From: a virus
Lineage: Duplodnaviria; Caudoviricetes
IMG/VR virus record: IMGVR_UViG_3300025875_000086
Span: 1-27,504 of that record
Length of the DNA: 27,504 bases
Direction: 5' to 3' (one strand)
Under the pieces are notes generated by a model. The model ran no database searches. It saw only the letters and a list, made by a program, of their open reading frames with translations, and was not told the DNA's origin. How positions within the stretch are numbered: the stretch's first letter is position 1; each line of letters opens with the position of its first letter. The position numbers and the translations under genes were made by a program. This document shows positions 20,819-27,504 of this stretch, piece after piece.

Positions 20819-21318
20819 TCAAGCACCCCCGGATCCTGCTGCTGCTGGCCACGGCTGCGGCTGGCGCCCTGGTGGTACTTCTCGACGGAGACGCCGAGAC
20901 CGTCGGTTCGATCCTCCTGCTGGCCGGGTTGCCCGGTCTGTTCGTCTTCGTGGTGCTGTACGCCGTGCGCTCGCCCTGGCGGTCCAACCTCGGCGGCCGG
21001 GTGATTATGCAGCTGGCGGCCACCGAGCTCCTGGTCCTGACCCTCGCCGCCGGCCAAGCCATCTGGGGAACCGAGTGGCCGGCCCGGGACTGGATCCGGC
21101 TGTTCATCTACTTCGCCATGTTCGTCGCCTTCTGGCGCCTGGCCGTCACCGTGGTCAAGGTCCAGGGCCTGCCACCGATAGCGCCGGCCCGGCCGCCCGA
21201 GGACCGACGGGGTGTGCAGAAGGAAGACCCCGACCTCGAGGCACCCGAGGAGACCGAGGAGTCCAAGGACGCCCGCAATGCTCCCCCGGGCGCGTACGGC
21301 GGCGATCAGCGGAGCTGA
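20815..21318 (+). CDS. Multi-pass membrane protein, putative holin
   Basis: About 4 hydrophobic helices, a YAVRSPWRSNLGGRVIM motif and an acidic C-terminal tail. Confidence 0.72.
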   Translation: MIKHPRILLLLATAAAGALVVLLDGDAETVGSILLLAGLPGLFVFVVLYAVRSPWRSNLGGRVIMQLAATELLVLTLAAGQAIWGTEWPARDWIRLFIYFAMFVAFWRLAVTVVKVQGLPPIAPARPPEDRRGVQKEDPDLEAPEETEESKDARNAPPGAYGGDQRS

Positions 21319-21332
21319 TTAGGCCCGCCCGC

Positions 21333-21556
21333 CGCGGCGCGATTACCGCGATCGCGCCCGCGATTCGCGCTCGCCCGCCCGGGACGTCACGCCCGCCCGC
21401 GGATCGGAAGCGCGCAACGCGCCCAGGCGCACGACGTCGCGCACGGCACGCGCTGCACAAGGAACGCGGGCGCCTCGCACGCCGCGCCGCTCTGCTCAAA
21501 CCGCGGGACACGCGGGCGCGACGACGCGGGCGCGTTCAATCCTGGACGCGCACGCG
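21333..21556. repeat. CGCG-dense non-coding tract
   Basis: 20 CGCG tetramers counted by eye in ~225 bp; ACGCGGGCGC occurs at 21464, 21510 and 21524. Confidence 0.7.
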
Positions 21557-21629
21557 AGGCCAAAAGAATTTTTTGTGGCTCTGACTAGGGCAGGAGCTGG
21601 TTTTCCGGCCCTCAATCCCGAATCCCCGC

Positions 21630-21658
21630 TAGACAGCCCGGGCGGCCTAGAGTAATGT
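21630..21658 (+). promoter_or_regulatory. Promoter P1 (variant)
   Basis: TAGACA-N17-TAATGT, with the GGCCTAGAGT motif lying mostly within the spacer. Confidence 0.6.
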
Positions 21659-21720
21659 TCTACCCATCACCTCAGCAGCACCGGGGAGGCGGCCAGCAGG
21701 ACCGGCCACCAGGGCAGGAC

Positions 21721-21750
21721 TTGACAGCACCGGGCCGCATGGCCTAGAGT
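21721..21750 (+). promoter_or_regulatory. Promoter P2, sigma-A-like
   Basis: TTGACA-N18-TAGAGT, with ATGGCC immediately before the -10. Confidence 0.85.
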
Positions 21751-21838
21751 TAAGCACAGATCGAACGCACGGCTCCCCCTTCGGGGACACGGGGCCGGTA
21801 AGTCTCCCTAGGGGAGCGGTATGCCTAGATCACCCCGC

Positions 21839-21867
21839 TTGACAGGCTGGCTCGGATGGCCTAGAGT
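21839..21867 (+). promoter_or_regulatory. Promoter P3, sigma-A-like
   Basis: TTGACA-N17-TAGAGT, with ATGGCC immediately before the -10. Confidence 0.88.
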
Positions 21868-21873
21868 AGTACT

Positions 21874-22345
21874 CAGCAAGGCAGGGCAAGCGCGAATCAC
21901 GGCGTCGGGCAAGCGAACTCGGTCAGGTATTCCGAGGGGAGTCCACGGGCCGCGTGGCTACCCTGTCTCGCCCAGAACGGCAAGATCGCAGACTCGGTTG
22001 CCCCTAACGGGGCCACCTCGTACCTGCCAGAACTTTGAGAACTCAATAGTGAAGCGCGAACGATATGTCGCCACAGGATTGCTCTGCCCGGACCCGAGAT
22101 GCGGGGAGCGGAGCACAGAGAGGCCTATGGCCTGTGGCACGACACGCTCTGGAGAACGGAGACCTCATTGGCCGAGGTCTGCCGGTAGACGCCCCGAACG
22201 GGGGTGAACAGGGCAGGAACCATAGCGCGGGGGAGAAGTGGGAATACGGAGCCGTCGTGAGACGTCTGTCCCGGGCCACTCACGCCCCCAAAGTAAGTCC
22301 GTGACAGGGACTTCGGCTGCGCTCGGACCTTCCCTCCGAGCGTTT
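21874..22345 (+). ncRNA. Long structured untranslated leader / candidate ncRNA
   Basis: No credible ORF. Stems visible by eye include GGCAGGG/CCCTGTC, CTCGG/CCGAG, CCACG/CGTGG, GCCCC-TAAC-GGGGC, GCCACAGG/CCTGTGGC, AGACCTC/GAGGTCT, CGTC-GTGA-GACG and CGCTCGGA/TCCGAGCG. Boundaries are approximate. Confidence 0.5.
22034..22051 (+). promoter_or_regulatory. rRNA-operon boxA-like antitermination element
   Basis: TTTGAGAACTCAATAGTG matches the mycobacterial/actinobacterial rrn leader boxA region as I recall it. It is an AT-rich island in GC-rich DNA, about 20 nt downstream of a tetraloop hairpin (22000-22013). Confidence 0.7.
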
Positions 22346-22380
22346 CCGTGGACCCCGCCCCATAGCGACAGGAGAGCTCA

Positions 22381-22680
22381 ATGGCTACCACCACTGACAA
22401 CATCACTAAGGCGCAGGCCATGGCGGCCTACCGTAAGGTCTGCAAGAAACTCGGCGTCACCCCTGCCGATCGGTCCGTCCGTCAAGGTCAGGACTCCGAC
22501 CTCTGGTCGGCCGGCCCGGTCCTCTGCGAGGACTTCGAGGGTTGGTCCTCGACGACTCACTGGGCGATTGTTTGGGAGGGCGACTACGAGTGGCCCCAGC
22601 GGATGTGGGAGATGTTCATCGGCACCGCCGTCTTCGCCGAGCCGATCAACGGCTACTCGCTCGGTCTGTACCGCCCATGA
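22381..22680 (+). CDS. Hypothetical protein (first gene of the putative early array)
   Basis: AGGAGAG RBS, 99 aa, WAIVWEGDYEWP...VFAEPINGYSLGLY. Confidence 0.8.
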   Translation: MATTTDNITKAQAMAAYRKVCKKLGVTPADRSVRQGQDSDLWSAGPVLCEDFEGWSSTTHWAIVWEGDYEWPQRMWEMFIGTAVFAEPINGYSLGLYRP

Positions 22681-23084
22681 AGGCCATGTACGGCCACCAG
22701 TCGGCCACCATCCACCTCAACGGTCTCCCTGGCGATCCGACCTATGGTCGGACCTGCTCCGTCCACCTGGACAAGGACCCGGGTCACGGCTCGATGAACT
22801 TCTACAACGAGTCGACCACCCAGATCACCATCACCGAAGCGACTCCGGAGGAGTACCGAGCGGTCGCCGCTCAACTCCGGAACGCCGCCAAGTACCTGTC
22901 GGTCGACGGCTTCGCCACCCGAGAGCGTTACCTGGAGTTGGCAGAGCGCTACGAGTTGGAGTCCTACGGCGAGCCGGACGAGTTCGGCAACTTCGACTGC
23001 CCGGACTGTCATCCGCACGACGACACCGATTGCACCTGTGATCGATGTGACGGTACCGGGTACGTCTCCGACCCCCGCCCCTGA
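22677..23084 (+). CDS. Hypothetical protein with a C-terminal DnaJ-like Cys cluster
   Basis: ATG 22677 (ATGA overlap); CPDC...CTCDRCDGTGY. Confidence 0.72.
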   Translation: MKAMYGHQSATIHLNGLPGDPTYGRTCSVHLDKDPGHGSMNFYNESTTQITITEATPEEYRAVAAQLRNAAKYLSVDGFATRERYLELAERYELESYGEPDEFGNFDCPDCHPHDDTDCTCDRCDGTGYVSDPRP

Positions 23085-23147
23085 TCTCGGCCGGTCCCGG
23101 TGTGACCACCCCGCCGGGCCGACCGACCCACTTAGAAAGTGAGCGCC

Positions 23148-23426
23148 ATGAAGTTCCGCAAGATCGAGACCAAGGTCACGACCGGCACCGACGGCCAGGA
23201 CAACGACGTCGTCCTGGTGACCGTCTTTCACGATGCTCGCCAGTCCTTCTCCAAGGCTGTCGACCCCGCTGCGAAGCGAGCCATGCGGGCCTATATGGCC
23301 CAGCACCGCATCCAGCACGCCACCCTGACCGGTGGCAACTACGGCCTCGCCATCGTCGACGAGCCCGACCCGATGCGCTGCAACTCGCAGGTCTGCTTCA
23401 CCATCACCGCGAAAGGCTCCAAGTGA
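23148..23426 (+). CDS. Hypothetical protein
   Basis: ATG 23148 after GAAAGTGAG; 92 aa; coding-like codon usage. Confidence 0.75.
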   Translation: MKFRKIETKVTTGTDGQDNDVVLVTVFHDARQSFSKAVDPAAKRAMRAYMAQHRIQHATLTGGNYGLAIVDEPDPMRCNSQVCFTITAKGSK

Positions 23427-24031
23427 GCAAGCACCTTTCCCCTAACCAGATCCTCCGCAAGCGAGCCGACACGACGACCCGCAAGACGGTCGCTCGGATC
23501 CTCGAGGTCTGGGACTCCGCGTCTGCCACCAACCGGGAAGACGGCGCGCAGTGGTACCCGCTCCATACGCAGCTGGTGATCCGGCTGTCTCGGGACTGGT
23601 ACGTCTCCGAGGAGCACGCCGCGGCGGTCCTGTCCCACCTCTCGCCCCGGGTCCAGTGGGACAAGGCGATCGCCGCTGCTCCGGTCATCCTGTCCGGCCA
23701 ACGTCCGTCGGGGATCCTCGGTGACCGGATCGAGGCCTGCCAGCAGGCTCTCCGGGCCGTCGACCCGCTGACCACCTTCGGTGGCCCCAAGACCCGCAAC
23801 TTCTACCTCAACCTCATCGGCGATCTCGACGCCGTCACCGTCGACGTCTGGGCATGGCGCATCGCTCTCGGCGAGCACGACGTCAAGGTCGAGAGCCGGG
23901 CCGGCGTCTATGACGCCGTGGCTCACTGCTACCGGCTCGCCGCTGCCAAGCGCGGCGTCCGTCCGTCGACGATGCAGGCCGCGACCTGGTGCGCCCTTCG
24001 GGGCCGGTCGGACTTGACACCTCTCCAGTGA
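23423..24031 (+). CDS. Conserved phage protein (DUF7178-like, possibly an HhH-glycosylase-related fold)
   Basis: GTG 23423 after GAAAGG; motifs GAQWY, AAAVLSHLSPRVQW, GPKTRNFYLNL, VTVDVWA and MQAATW. Family assignment is from memory. Confidence 0.65.
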   Translation: MSKHLSPNQILRKRADTTTRKTVARILEVWDSASATNREDGAQWYPLHTQLVIRLSRDWYVSEEHAAAVLSHLSPRVQWDKAIAAAPVILSGQRPSGILGDRIEACQQALRAVDPLTTFGGPKTRNFYLNLIGDLDAVTVDVWAWRIALGEHDVKVESRAGVYDAVAHCYRLAAAKRGVRPSTMQAATWCALRGRSDLTPLQ

Positions 24032-24042
24032 TGGCCTAGAGT
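24014..24042 (+). promoter_or_regulatory. Promoter P4
   Basis: TTGACA-N17-TAGAGT with ATGGCC, followed by the leader CACCTACCGATCGGAGCACGACATG. Confidence 0.88.
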
Positions 24043-24073
24043 AGTACTCACCACCTACCGATCGGAGCACGAC

Positions 24074-24535
24074 ATGAGCAACGACACCCTCCTCCCCGCT
24101 GGCACCTTCGCCGGTCACATCGGCGAGCGCACCTTCGACGACGCCGACCTGTTCGGCAAGGCCGCCGGCGAGTGGCGCTCCTCCAAGGTCGAGACCCGCC
24201 CGGGCCGTCGAGTGTGGACCGCTGACACGATCAGCCACAGCAAGACGATCTCGGTGCCGCAGCACTGGTCGGCCATGACCAAGGCGGCCAAGCGCGGCAA
24301 CCAGAGCCCGACCAAGCTGACGCCCGAGGAGCAGGAGTGGCTCGGCGCTAACGTCTCGTTCTCGGTCAAGGCTCATCGGCCCGACGGCAACGGGGTCGAC
24401 TACTTCGGCCAGACCGGTCAGGTCTGGGCACTCTCGACCATCGGCTCGGTCTGGGTCGTCCTGGACAACGCCACCAGCAAGGGTGGAGGTGCTGCCTTCG
24501 AGTCCGTCCCCACGGCCAGCCTGACCCGCATCTGA
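24074..24535 (+). CDS. Hypothetical protein
   Basis: 153 aa, GGAG RBS, directly downstream of P4. Confidence 0.8.
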   Translation: MSNDTLLPAGTFAGHIGERTFDDADLFGKAAGEWRSSKVETRPGRRVWTADTISHSKTISVPQHWSAMTKAAKRGNQSPTKLTPEEQEWLGANVSFSVKAHRPDGNGVDYFGQTGQVWALSTIGSVWVVLDNATSKGGGAAFESVPTASLTRI

Positions 24536-24543
24536 CACCTAAC

Positions 24544-24570
24544 GTGGCGCCCGACAGGAGCGGGCGCCGC
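24544..24570 (+). other. Intergenic stem-loop
   Basis: GTGGCGCCCG-ACAGGAG-CGGGCGCCGC; no U-tract. Confidence 0.65.
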
Positions 24571-24603
24571 CATGGCACGTCAGCCGCAACCCAGAGGAGA
24601 GCT

Positions 24604-24840
24604 ATGAGCACGAACGCAGAGTGGTTTTACGTCGGCAACACCGGCGCATACGTCGAGGCGGCAGAGCAGGGTGAGACCTACGGCGACGCCCACCTGGAGC
24701 ACGACGAGTTCGGCGTGGTCATCGGTGCCGACGCCTTCGCCGTCGTCTACAGCACCGACGTCGACGACTTGGTCGCCTTTTTCGAGAAGGCCCTGGCCGT
24801 CGCTCATGCGATCAAGGAATCGTCACAGCGTCCCGCTTGA
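24604..24840 (+). CDS. Hypothetical acidic protein
   Basis: ATG 24604 after GAGGAG; 78 aa; its stop codon lies within the TTGACA of P5. Confidence 0.78.
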   Translation: MSTNAEWFYVGNTGAYVEAAEQGETYGDAHLEHDEFGVVIGADAFAVVYSTDVDDLVAFFEKALAVAHAIKESSQRPA

Positions 24841-24865
24841 CAGATGCTCTCGAATGGCCTAGAGT
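24837..24865 (+). promoter_or_regulatory. Promoter P5
   Basis: TTGACA-N17-TAGAGT with ATGGCC, followed by the leader CACCTACCGAACGGAGCAGGACATG. Confidence 0.88.
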
Positions 24866-24895
24866 AAAGACATCACCTACCGAACGGAGCAGGAC

Positions 24896-25258
24896 ATGAA
24901 GAACGAGAACACCGAGCGGCTCGAAGAGTACGGGCAGCGTCTAGTCGAAGCGAGTTTCCGCGTCTGGGTCACCGCGACCCACAGCCGCAGCGGAGGCTTC
25001 CTGACCTACGAGCGGGGCGGGTTCTGGGGTCACCTCCAGGAGTCCACCTACGAGGGCTGGCAGCACGACATGCCTCTCGTACCCAGCCGGGAGTTCGGCT
25101 CCGCGATGTTCATCGGTGTCCCCGTCGAAGACGTCTGGTCGGTCGAGGCTGCGGAGCAGGCGGCGCAAGCCACCAACCACAATGACATCGTCGGTACCCA
25201 GCGCAACGCCGGCGACAAGACGTGGCTCTCCAAAGACGCCTACCCCCTCCACAAGTAG
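24896..25258 (+). CDS. Hypothetical protein
   Basis: 120 aa, GGAG RBS, directly downstream of P5. Confidence 0.8.
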   Translation: MKNENTERLEEYGQRLVEASFRVWVTATHSRSGGFLTYERGGFWGHLQESTYEGWQHDMPLVPSREFGSAMFIGVPVEDVWSVEAAEQAAQATNHNDIVGTQRNAGDKTWLSKDAYPLHK

Positions 25259-25264
25259 CACCCC

Positions 25265-25288
25265 TGGCGGGGCCTACGGGCCCCGCCA
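25265..25288 (+). other. Intergenic stem-loop with a cUACGg tetraloop
   Basis: Perfect 10-bp stem TGGCGGGGCC-TACG-GGCCCCGCCA; no U-tract. Confidence 0.8.
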
Positions 25289-25312
25289 CCCCTCCCCTTG
25301 AGAGTGAGCACC

Positions 25313-25633
25313 ATGAGTTTGTTCTGCTGCCCCGTAGGGCACGCCGAGAATCCGCCCGAGACCTGGTCGGTCGAGAAGATCGCACCTCGGACCTGGGTCA
25401 TCTCGACCGGAGTGTCGTCCTACGCCCGGATCTCCAGCTACGGCACCAAGCGAGCCGCTCAGGACGCGATCGACTACTCCTGGGCCCCTCTCTACAACCG
25501 TGAGACCGCCTGGTACGAGGGCTCTACGCTCCTCGGCTGGCGCCCCTACGAACCCCGCCCCTGCAAGAACCACCCCACGGTCGACGAGCACGCCTTCGAC
25601 CTCGACGAGGAGCGCTTCGGCCCTCAGGACTAG
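25313..25633 (+). CDS. Hypothetical protein
   Basis: ATG 25313 after GAGAGTGAG; 106 aa. Confidence 0.72.
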   Translation: MSLFCCPVGHAENPPETWSVEKIAPRTWVISTGVSSYARISSYGTKRAAQDAIDYSWAPLYNRETAWYEGSTLLGWRPYEPRPCKNHPTVDEHAFDLDEERFGPQD

Positions 25634-25641
25634 GAGTCCGC

Positions 25642-26214
25642 ATGACCAAGCAACACGACCAGATCGTCGACAAGATTGTCGAGACCGTGGCCAACTTCGC
25701 CGGTCGGCAGATGTGCGAGGAGTTCCCCTACGCCACGACCGGAGACGTCGGAGCCGAGTCGATCGACGGCTTGGACGCGGCCGTCCGCACCTTCGCCAAC
25801 GAGTGGATCGAGAACAACGTGAGGCCGATGTACTTCTCCGGGGACTGGTGTGAGCCGGAGAACGGGGTCGGCCCCTGGGAGGCCTACGAGGCTGTCCGGT
25901 TCGGTCCGTCTTGGAACGGCTGGGCGACTCCGCTGGTGACCCGGGCGGTCGCCGAGCGCATCGTCGAGCGCCAGCAGCGCATAGCCCGCGAACACCCCGG
26001 GATCGACGCCCGGCTCCTGATGTGGCACAACGACACCCTGGTCGTGGTCGAGGAGGACGAGTCCCACTACGCCGATCTCATCGAGCCGACCGAGGACGGG
26101 CTCTACGACGTCAGCCTCGGCTGGTGCTGGAGCCGCCTCGATCGGATGACCGACCTGCACTTCCGCGTCTGCCTTTCCAATGGCGGCGTCCGGGACTACT
26201 CGACGACAAGCTGA
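25642..26214 (+). CDS. Hypothetical protein (WNGW..P motif)
   Basis: TAGGAG RBS; 190 aa, acidic and Trp-rich: SWNGWATPLVT...YDVSLGWCW. Confidence 0.8.
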   Translation: MTKQHDQIVDKIVETVANFAGRQMCEEFPYATTGDVGAESIDGLDAAVRTFANEWIENNVRPMYFSGDWCEPENGVGPWEAYEAVRFGPSWNGWATPLVTRAVAERIVERQQRIAREHPGIDARLLMWHNDTLVVVEEDESHYADLIEPTEDGLYDVSLGWCWSRLDRMTDLHFRVCLSNGGVRDYSTTS

Positions 26215-26281
26215 CAGCACCGCCCGACCCAGCTTTACTGGCAAGACCCTCCCCGCTCGTCTACCACCGAAGGAAGCAGCC

Positions 26282-27454
26282 ATGACCCGCTACGACTACA
26301 CAGACACGTTCGCTGGACCCGGCGGCTGGGACATCGCCGGTCATGCCATGGGACTCAACGGCCTCGGCCTGGAGGTCGACTCCTCGGCGTGCGCCACCCG
26401 GCGCATGGCGCGGCTTCCAACGGTGGAGGGCGACGTCCGCAAGTACGGTCCGCAGGACTTCCCCAGGACGCCGGGCTTCATCGGCTCGCCGCCCTGCCAG
26501 ACGTTCTCCCGGGCCGGCAAGGGGTCGGGCCGCGGCTCGATCGAGGGCCTGGTCGCGGCGGTCTACTCCATGGCCCGCTACGGGGCCAGCGGCCAGCACC
26601 TGTTCGAGGACGAGAAGACGGAGTTGGTGCTCGAGCCGCTCCGGTGGATGCTCCAGGCGATCGACCTCGGCCAGGCCTACCAGTGGATCGCCCTGGAGCA
26701 GGTCCCGGCCGTCCTGCCCATCTGGGAGGCGATCGGCAACGTCCTCCGGGAGAACGGCTACAGCGTCGCTGTGGGCCTGCTGAACGCCGAGCAGTACGGA
26801 GTGCCCCAGACCCGCCAGCGGGCGATCTTGGTGGCCAACAGGATCCGCCTCGTGTCCCTGCCGACTCCGACCCACTCCCAGTACCACGTCCGCACCCCGA
26901 AGCGTCTGGACGCCGGTGTGGCGCCCTGGCGCAGCATGGCCGACGGCCTCGGCTGGACCGGGACCGACCTCATCGGCTTCCCCCGCAAGTACGACGGCGG
27001 ATCGGGTGGACCGGTGGAGCTCGGTGGCAAGACGTACCGCCGCCGCGACCTCCGGTCGGCTGACCAGCCGTCGTTCACCGTGACCGAGAAGGCCCGGTCG
27101 TGGACCCGCTGGGAGATCGAGCAAGAGATGGAGAACGGCGTCCTGCCGGACGGCCAGCAGCGCCTCAACAACCAGTCGGGCACGAAGTTCGACCTCGGCT
27201 GGCCGATGGACCGGCCCTCGCCGGTCATCGCCGGTCGTGGCCTGGTCACGATGCCGGGTGCCAACGCCAACCGGTTCAACGGCAGCACCAAGAGCCGCAA
27301 CGACGGCGTCCGGATCACGGTCGAGGAGGCCGCGCGTCTCCAGTCCGTCCCGGCCTCGCACGTCTTCCAGGGCACCAAGACCAAGCAGTTCGAGCAGGTC
27401 GGGAACATGGTTCCCCCGCTGCTGGCCGGCGCGGTGATCCGTGCCGCAAGTTGA
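26282..27454 (+). CDS. DNA (cytosine-5)-methyltransferase
   Basis: Motif I FAGPGG, IV GSPPCQTFS, VI LEQV, VIII YGVPQTRQR, IX EAARLQS, X QVGNMVPP; ATG 26282 after AAGGAAG. Confidence 0.95.
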   Translation: MTRYDYTDTFAGPGGWDIAGHAMGLNGLGLEVDSSACATRRMARLPTVEGDVRKYGPQDFPRTPGFIGSPPCQTFSRAGKGSGRGSIEGLVAAVYSMARYGASGQHLFEDEKTELVLEPLRWMLQAIDLGQAYQWIALEQVPAVLPIWEAIGNVLRENGYSVAVGLLNAEQYGVPQTRQRAILVANRIRLVSLPTPTHSQYHVRTPKRLDAGVAPWRSMADGLGWTGTDLIGFPRKYDGGSGGPVELGGKTYRRRDLRSADQPSFTVTEKARSWTRWEIEQEMENGVLPDGQQRLNNQSGTKFDLGWPMDRPSPVIAGRGLVTMPGANANRFNGSTKSRNDGVRITVEEAARLQSVPASHVFQGTKTKQFEQVGNMVPPLLAGAVIRAAS

Positions 27455-27479
27455 CAGACGCTCGACGATGGCCTAGAGT
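27451..27479 (+). promoter_or_regulatory. Promoter P6 (likely leaderless transcript)
   Basis: TTGACA-N17-TAGAGT with ATGGCC; an ATG lies 6 nt after the -10 with no RBS; the MTase stop codon lies within the -35. Confidence 0.85.
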
Positions 27480-27485
27480 AGAGAC

Positions 27486-27504
27486 ATGAGCACAGCAACA
27501 GCGA
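27486..27504 (+). CDS. 5' end of the next gene (truncated by the window)
   Basis: ATG AGC ACA GCA ACA GCG at the predicted transcription start of P6. Confidence 0.5.

Follow-up and report, generated by a model that had tools for sequence, protein, structure and literature searches.

Antitermination at bacterial rrn leaders involves the boxB, boxA and boxC elements together with NusA, NusB, NusE, NusG, SuhB and S4. According to the available parts of two reports, boxA alone nucleates the rrn complex in E. coli, where the complex blocks Rho and chaperones RNA folding, and binding of NusB to boxA has also been shown for B. subtilis (PMC13753749, PMC8632103). The former, in its available part, also places boxA ahead of the 23S gene in E. 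coli and Bacillus (PMC13753749), and the accessible sections of two further papers report boxA, boxB and boxC in mycobacterial rrn leaders (PMC5676007) and the binding of boxC by M. tuberculosis NusA (PMC2724277). The Pleft non-coding RNA of the cluster A phages L5, D29 and StarStuff is about 500 nt long and free of ORFs, with tandem early promoters before it and the first early gene behind it; the available part of that report describes the L5 leader as the most abundant phage RNA, processed and toxic, with a 3′ part that cannot be deleted and with about 90% of its transcripts ending before the first gene, and makes no mention of boxA (PMC5712189). The combination of boxA and a folded RNA in a leader is a logic already known from rrn operons and from the nut site of lambda, which acts with the N protein. 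HK022 put and B. subtilis EAR, both protein-free cis antiterminators, are folded RNAs behind an early promoter or before a sugar-biosynthesis operon, and neither is known to need boxA. GOLLD, ROOL, OLE and other large ornate RNAs are phage-associated, multi-helix and of unknown function.

We analyzed the early leader of a phage in a window, by which we mean the whole 27,504-nt stretch of DNA under study. Like an rrn leader, it has tandem promoter-like sites and the same 18-nt motif, and downstream of its boxA comes an untranslated RNA that folds within a long-range closing helix; unlike an rrn leader, it has no rRNA downstream, protein genes follow within about 330 nt, no stalk partner is found (-17 versus -32 kcal/mol) and the 5′ half of its boxA departs from the host form. 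It resembles put and EAR in being folded and in that no dedicated protein gene was found for it, whereas its core is larger, multi-junction and coupled to boxA; Rfam, which may not hold put or EAR, gave no such match at gathering scores and four chance hits to E 10. As in lambda, a phage boxA stands in an early leader, but a 175-nt domain takes the place of a short-spacer boxB hairpin behind it (judged by eye), and hairpins precede it; no member of the N family was seen among the 37 window frames scanned, a search that a short unstructured N could escape. The L5 Pleft start resembles, by eye, the starts of promoters P1 and P3 of the window, but neither the core sequence nor its model finds a match in L5, which has no boxA within five mismatches, while other cluster A phages such as Pukovnik possess a boxA with a different RNA behind it. 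The core shares its many helices and its phage association with GOLLD, ROOL and OLE but is much shorter, and it matches none of them at Rfam gathering scores or to E 10. Literature searches listed no paper that describes this RNA or a boxA in the leaders of actinophages, and six supplementary files of a paper on 10,000 candidate phage RNAs gave no match (PMC10690425; files 1, 2 and 4 could still contain the motif).

The early leader and its boxA

The window is a 27.5-kb phage contig in which genes for terminase, portal, head and tail come first; small membrane genes follow as far as 21318, and small early-type genes and a DNA methyltransferase come after them. Its host is very likely an actinobacterium, because the capsid protein is 45-61% identical to capsids of Arthrobacter, Microbacterium, Gordonia, Mycobacterium and Nocardia phages. 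Three promoter-like sites on the plus strand precede the early genes: P1 (TAGACA-17-TAATGT, 21630-21658), read from the sequence, and P2 (TTGACA-18-TAGAGT, 21721-21750) and P3 (TTGACA-17-TAGAGT, 21839-21867), obtained by promoter-pattern scanning. Sites of the form TTGACA-17/18-TAGAGT number five in 21000-27504, compared with 0.5 +/- 0.7 in shuffles. L012, a complete phage record of 68.6 kb, shares 94% identity with the -10 and start region of promoter P1 (21652-21686), and the 13 nt at the predicted P3 start, near 21874-77, are identical in Nocardia phage P3.1. The folded leader lies between P3 and the first early gene, an ORF of 99 aa without a PHROG match (22381-22680, plus strand; ORF list and profile search), in front of which the sequence has an RBS-like AGGAGA (22370-75, plus strand). 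A simple scan, which misses Rho sites, revealed no terminator-like site on the plus strand of 21000-27504. Three further TTGACA-17-TAGAGT promoter-like sites occur within the early region, at 24014, 24837 and 27451.

A G+C-rich, CGCG-laden and self-complementary tract separates the lysis genes from the early promoters in the window (21320-21580) and at four other loci (L010:2300-2815, L051:4400-4975, L052:6850-7580 and L012:1230-1560); an A-run/T-run closes it in P3.1, Wollypog, Terapin and the window, and it may be an origin or a signal for packaging. Over 19 nt, the beginning of the P3 transcript (21884-21902) is 89% complementary to this tract (21358-21376); the corresponding cases in L012 and P3.1 are shorter and weaker, and the complementarity may be due to chance.

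The boxA and its spacer occupy 22028-22051 (plus strand), behind the promoter-like sites and in the untranslated leader. The 18-mer at 22034-22051, expected 1.5e-8 times in the window by base composition, is identical to the motif of actinobacterial rrn leaders, which bears out the earlier recognition of a boxA-like motif. It recurs in about 3700 stretches of a genome collection, all of them actinobacterial among the 80 matches listed. Within 122 matches at 120 loci, it stood 107-372 nt before 16S in 33 of the 33 loci with enough flank, the 16S genes being recognized by a primer motif; a variant, a 2-mismatch copy, precedes 23S. By sequence identity, the window element is an rrn-type boxA site. 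The six preceding nucleotides are only partly host-like, CAGAAC in the window versus mostly CTGTTG, GTGTTG or GTGTTC in hosts, and this 5′ half varies in many phage copies too. The boxA of L012 has four mismatches with its core intact, and this variant was found at no rRNA gene in 301 genomes.

Service as a processing substrate had been suggested as one role of the RNA, but the boxA has no downstream pairing partner with which to form an rrn-type processing stalk (RNase III site). In an rrn operon used as a control, the motif pairs with the spacer after 16S at -32.2 kcal/mol, the second-best site reaching -16.6, whereas the best duplexes were -17.1 (window, to 27480), -18.3 (P3.1) and -17.1 kcal/mol (Pukovnik), none of them stalk-like. 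Since the three phage copies tested have no partner resembling the post-16S one, the conservation of boxA in phages points to recognition by a protein, and its predicted function is to bind NusB-S10 and suppress Rho-dependent termination.

A conserved 175-nt core

The preliminary description took 21874-22345 as an ORF-free, heavily base-paired leader. Strong folding was confined to the middle (22052-22230; z -3.42, 0 of 200 shuffles as good), while the whole region reached a z of only -1.36, with 9 of 100 shuffles as good. Values for the flanking segments were -1.93 for 21876-22030 (6 of 200 shuffles as stable), -1.31 for 22228-22295 (30 of 200) and -2.23 for 22290-22360 (4 of 200). The arms listed earlier are all present, in place or one to two bases off, as is the duplicated GGGCAAGCG (at 21884 and 21907). 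The proposed closing helix GGCAGGG/CCCTGTC had a pairing probability of 0 in both folds containing it, and the 5′ domain folded alone is closed in its place by GGCAGG/CCTGCC (22023-28). L012 and P3.1 contain no equivalent of this multibranch domain or of the GNRA-capped CGTC-GTGA-GACG domain, the boxA is predicted to enter a weak hairpin and not to sit in an unpaired linker, and the region is not strictly free of ORFs, since three frames of at least 60 aa on the plus strand and three on the minus strand overlap it. The 5′ leader (21876-22030, plus strand) is a variable stretch with hairpins, sharing only 13 nt with P3.1, and 22229-22345 (plus strand) holds variable 3′ hairpins, with different ones at the same place in L012 and P3.1. 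Behind the last of them (22320-42) come three T, and a 3′ end is possible there.

The part of the claim that stands is a core of 175 nt at 22054-22228 (plus strand), closed by helix P1 (22054-57 with 22225-28), where folding and covariation agree and whose end blocks are common to all four members described below. Domain 1 (22071-22137, plus strand) consists of helices P2 (22071-77/22131-37), P3 (22080-87/22108-15) and P3b (22093-96/22102-05); compared with L012, its 19 pairs show five double changes and one one-sided change that keeps pairing, and none is broken. Domain 2 (22146-22214, plus strand) is a three-way junction of helices P5 (22146-51/22209-14) and P6 (22157-66/22174-84) and the P7 hairpin (22192-22203), with seven double changes and no break among 20 pairs; the 3′ strand of helix P6a lies at 22182-84 (plus strand), and 22184-22204 is invariant in three phages.

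The helices tested were predicted from the window alone and then checked in L012, with the registers of P3 and P3b set by hand. Across 48 helix pairs in this one pair of sequences, 32 were unchanged, three had one-sided changes and still paired, 12 had double changes and one was broken, whereas random change of an equal number of letters broke 19 on average and never fewer than eight (200,000 trials). Leaving out five pairs of an alternative hairpin that overlaps P2 gave 43 pairs, of which 28 were the same, two one-sided, 12 double and one broken. In an unfitted MAFFT alignment, 30 pairs were 100% paired, with eight double changes, against 33-47% in slid controls. The compensatory changes bear out the helices CCACAGG/CCTGTGG, TGCTCTGC/GCGGAGCA and AGACCTC/GAGGTCT of the preliminary description. 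Because the helices are kept in this way in a 75%-identical homologue, we conclude from sequence comparison that the structured RNA at 22054-22228 is real. When the whole transcript is folded, the energy model gives up helices P1 and P5 in favour of mispairing with the 5′ leader, although P5 covaries.

A pseudoknot is predicted within 22122-22173 (plus strand), between 22122-28 and the P6 loop (22167-73). Six of its seven pairs form in both the window and L012, with two double changes (chance 0.026), and the loop has exactly one 6-of-7 partner per core, at the same place. The pseudoknot strand was off by one base in the MAFFT alignment, and the register was taken from the BLAST alignment; we consider the pseudoknot likely, not certain, to be real. 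An alternative long-range pairing, 22084-22089 with 22210-22215, was seen by eye in the window and L012 and as a long helix in a constrained fold of the mobile-element locus L323 (see below); it competes with helices P3 and P5 and is a possible switch. The 3′ block of the core (22216-22227) and a second CCATAGCG before the RBS (22360-22367) look like the 3′ half of a boxA variant that is common in phages.

The core fold matches no Rfam family and is uncatalogued, as had been proposed: searches of the window at gathering scores and of 21300-22500 to E 10 gave no credible family and four chance matches. ARAGORN found no tRNA or tmRNA in the window, and the core has no significant likeness to 16S or 23S rRNA. 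Two candidate identities were rejected, a copy of a 23S rRNA junction, the best block being equalled by 20 of 200 shuffles (profile E 1.5), and a CRISPR-repeat mimic, which had no Rfam match and whose look-alike tail is absent from L012 and P3.1.

An ATG at the same place opens a frame of 74-79 aa in the window (22065-22304) and in L012. Between these two sequences, the first third is out of frame and the in-frame block has 14 non-synonymous and four synonymous codons, compared with 36 and 70 in the capsid gene used as a control; judged by these substitutions, the frame changes like non-coding DNA, not like a gene.

L012, located by a pattern scan, is 75% identical to the window over 22026-22231 and has the same gene order. 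In P3.1, the order of lysis genes, G+C-rich tract, A/T tract, promoter, identical first 13 nt and boxA recurs, and three sequence blocks of the core are kept, both end blocks included; its interior is unalignable, and folding it on the homologous helices costs 9 kcal/mol relative to its best fold. A search of 301 genomes with the boxA variant of L012 gave three matches, one of them L323 (L323/L330) in genome G097, which has a host-like boxA 5′ half and the two end blocks at a distance of 173 nt (in the window, 174 nt), an arrangement seen in 0 of 200,000 shuffles. Helix P1 is extended to eight pairs in L323, which scores E 5e-6 with a phage-only model built without it, and its interior does not align with the other members. 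L323 heads an operon of FAD oxidoreductase, DegT aminotransferase and GDP-mannose dehydratase genes beside relaxase, MobC and integrase genes, with no phage genes among the 15 frames scanned nearby. The order promoter, boxA, core and first gene holds at all four loci, each of them at the head of an operon: the core starts 2-7 nt after boxA in 4/4 members and the first gene about 100-170 nt after the core, and the downstream genes are mutually unrelated.

Further searches gave no other member. L012 was the sole true member in the viral scans, which otherwise gave chance matches (one in one scan, eight in another); the metagenome scan returned the window's own record, an L012 duplicate and one chance match; a genome scan for homologues gave none; and the neighbouring protein had no relatives in viral contigs. 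Model R1 matched nothing in 10 related records, in the Krampus, Papyrus, Jalebi and L5 stretches, or, at E 1e-4, in 76 boxA-bearing loci, and model R2 scored 62 other loci at boxA level only (at most 28 bits) and added no member from 150 genomes. In 401 and 121 genomes searched by pattern and by DNA sequence, G097 was the only find, and a DNA search of 151 genomes gave three short, chance-like matches. The element is absent from many related phages, and the assembly of the closest relative by capsid (G001, 94%) does not contain the leader region.

boxA as a header in actinophages

Of the 79 phage records matched by a 30-nt boxA query, 60 bear the name of an actinobacterial host. Among the rows listed (60, duplicates included), 43 of the 46 annotated actinophage rows were intergenic versus 0 of the 11 others, and in eight named phages the motif lay 290-480 nt before the first gene. 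A relaxed pattern found about 160 IMG/VR stretches; 110 of the 121 boxA matches examined were in loci of at least 50% G+C, and none was followed by an rRNA start. The sequences after boxA fell into 53 groups among 117 sequences (L202-L321), and at 34 loci, about one per group, the next 200 nt folded with a median z of -2.3 versus -1.2 and -0.8 in the controls (p 0.048 and 0.003). Most boxA-led groups had no Rfam match in the 20 scanned, and they are a source of further new RNA families.

The boxA also precedes known stable RNAs, standing 21 nt before tmRNA in phage Bongo (L184:1501-1941) and directly before tRNA genes in L207, L218 and L219. A boxA-led module at L204:771-958 (plus strand) includes a 16S rRNA-like piece (RF00177, model 107-310, 60.7 bits), and a shorter piece of the same 16S region lies behind boxA in L214 and L242; possibly these pieces are rRNA mimics that bind ribosomal proteins. 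In Pukovnik (L011:730-1030) and L008, boxA lies behind tandem Pleft promoters and the RNA behind it, which has two T-loop-like hairpins, is conserved (81% identity between the two loci), L5 being without boxA. A different motif is shared behind boxA by prophage-like loci, namely L005 and L007 (73% over 41 nt between these two) and L185 (RGL3). At the same genomic place in phage Wollypog, a boxA-like motif with four mismatches (L051:5240-5256) heads a 300-nt leader with no core-model match. The leader at that place in phage Cuke (L053:7360-7430) contains hammerhead-like core words but has no Rfam match at gathering score.

Candidate modes of action

Our preferred reading, a tentative one that the preliminary description also listed, is that this is the untranslated leader of an actinophage early operon in which boxA would load the host Nus complex and the folded core would act in cis to let the polymerase read on. 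In a first step, which is probable, the tandem host-type promoters would fire early and NusB-S10, NusA and NusG would bind boxA, shielding about 330 untranslated nt from Rho and holding the 5′ strand of helix P1 near the exit channel until its partner emerges 170 nt later. The idea of Nus-guided folding comes from E. coli, as set out in the available part of PMC8632103, and the misfolding of the core by the energy model in the full transcript fits a need for such guidance. In a second step, for which our confidence is somewhat short of even, the pseudoknotted core, like put and EAR RNAs, would accompany the polymerase during elongation and replace a phage antitermination protein, with read-through of terminators in cis as the predicted effect.

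We favour cis read-through because cores with these end blocks stand before a mobile biosynthetic operon as well as before phage early operons, and because no NusG paralogue was found: the NusG family (PF02357) was absent from 3/3 related phage records (control, 10 of 14). The latter result also counts against the LoaP-like logic once proposed for the leader. That L323 heads sugar-biosynthesis genes carried by a mobile element agrees with a cis element that is portable. Several observations weaken the reading. No plus-strand terminator-like site was seen and the three internal promoter-like sites lessen the need for read-through, many related phages are without the element, and the interiors of P3.1 and L323 are unalignable, so that the covariation comes from one sequence pair. 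The part assigned to boxA is weakened by the difference of its six preceding nucleotides from the common host forms and by the four mismatches in L012. The occurrence of boxA before tmRNA, tRNAs and 53 sequence groups fits a general header for stable RNAs and argues against action in cis, as does the L5 leader, which accumulates while about 90% of its transcripts end before the first gene, according to the available part of PMC5712189.

A close alternative, which takes in the decoy role listed in the preliminary description, is a discrete, abundant and stable RNA that acts in trans by sequestering a host protein (RNA-binding, ribosomal or defence-related) as a decoy or sponge; we assign it a probability of about one case in three. 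boxA would then only protect and fold the RNA, as for rRNA and tmRNA, and most transcripts would end at the 22320-42 hairpin. Such a role agrees with the boxA-led tmRNA of Bongo and tRNAs of L207, L218 and L219, with the 16S-like pieces in L204, L214 and L242, and with the abundance, processing, toxicity and undeletable 3′ part of the L5 Pleft leader (PMC5712189, available part), whose start resembles, by eye, those of window promoters P1 and P3. The patchy presence of the element would suit an accessory function, and the internal promoters, with no downstream terminator seen, are equally in keeping with it. However, the G097 member heads a mobile sugar-biosynthesis operon, where a host-takeover RNA makes less sense, L5 has neither boxA nor a model match and is an analogue only, and the core has no significant likeness to 16S or 23S rRNA.

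It is unlikely that boxA is incidental and that the first genes are tuned by the core, whether as a switch that senses a ligand or protein, as an element for self-cleavage or processing, or as an mRNA stabilizer. Pseudoknots and invariant junction bases are typical of riboswitches and ribozymes, and the core has both, along with competing pairings around helices P1/P2 and P5. Yet no Rfam riboswitch or ribozyme matched to E 10 beyond the four chance hits, the genes downstream are unrelated between members, and the core ends about 140 nt before the RBS. Very improbable is that 22065-22304 encodes a small protein or that the hairpins are chance products of 64% G+C, since, despite the shared ATG and the modest z of the whole region, the first third of the frame is out of register between the two sequences and most codon changes in its in-frame block alter the amino acid, and the 12 double changes with one break lie far from what random change produces.

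A bolder reading, which we regard as less likely than not, is a new class of portable antitermination cassette in which an rRNA-type boxA fused to a pseudoknotted RNA would put the actinobacterial polymerase into rRNA mode without a phage protein. Lytic phages and a mobile operon for sugar biosynthesis would both use it, and it would be one of dozens of unrecognized boxA-led actinophage RNA modules, some of them 16S-derived. A working cis antiterminator, if true, would be a tool for the expression of long operons in actinobacteria. The locus bears on whether the rRNA Nus complex works outside rRNA operons in actinobacteria and on what role the abundant early leader RNAs of actinophages play; as a test case it is small, its helices are defined, compensatory variants of it occur in nature, and one member is found in an isolated phage (P3.1). 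As the boxA header is common in actinophages, it offers a cheap route to many more phage RNAs.
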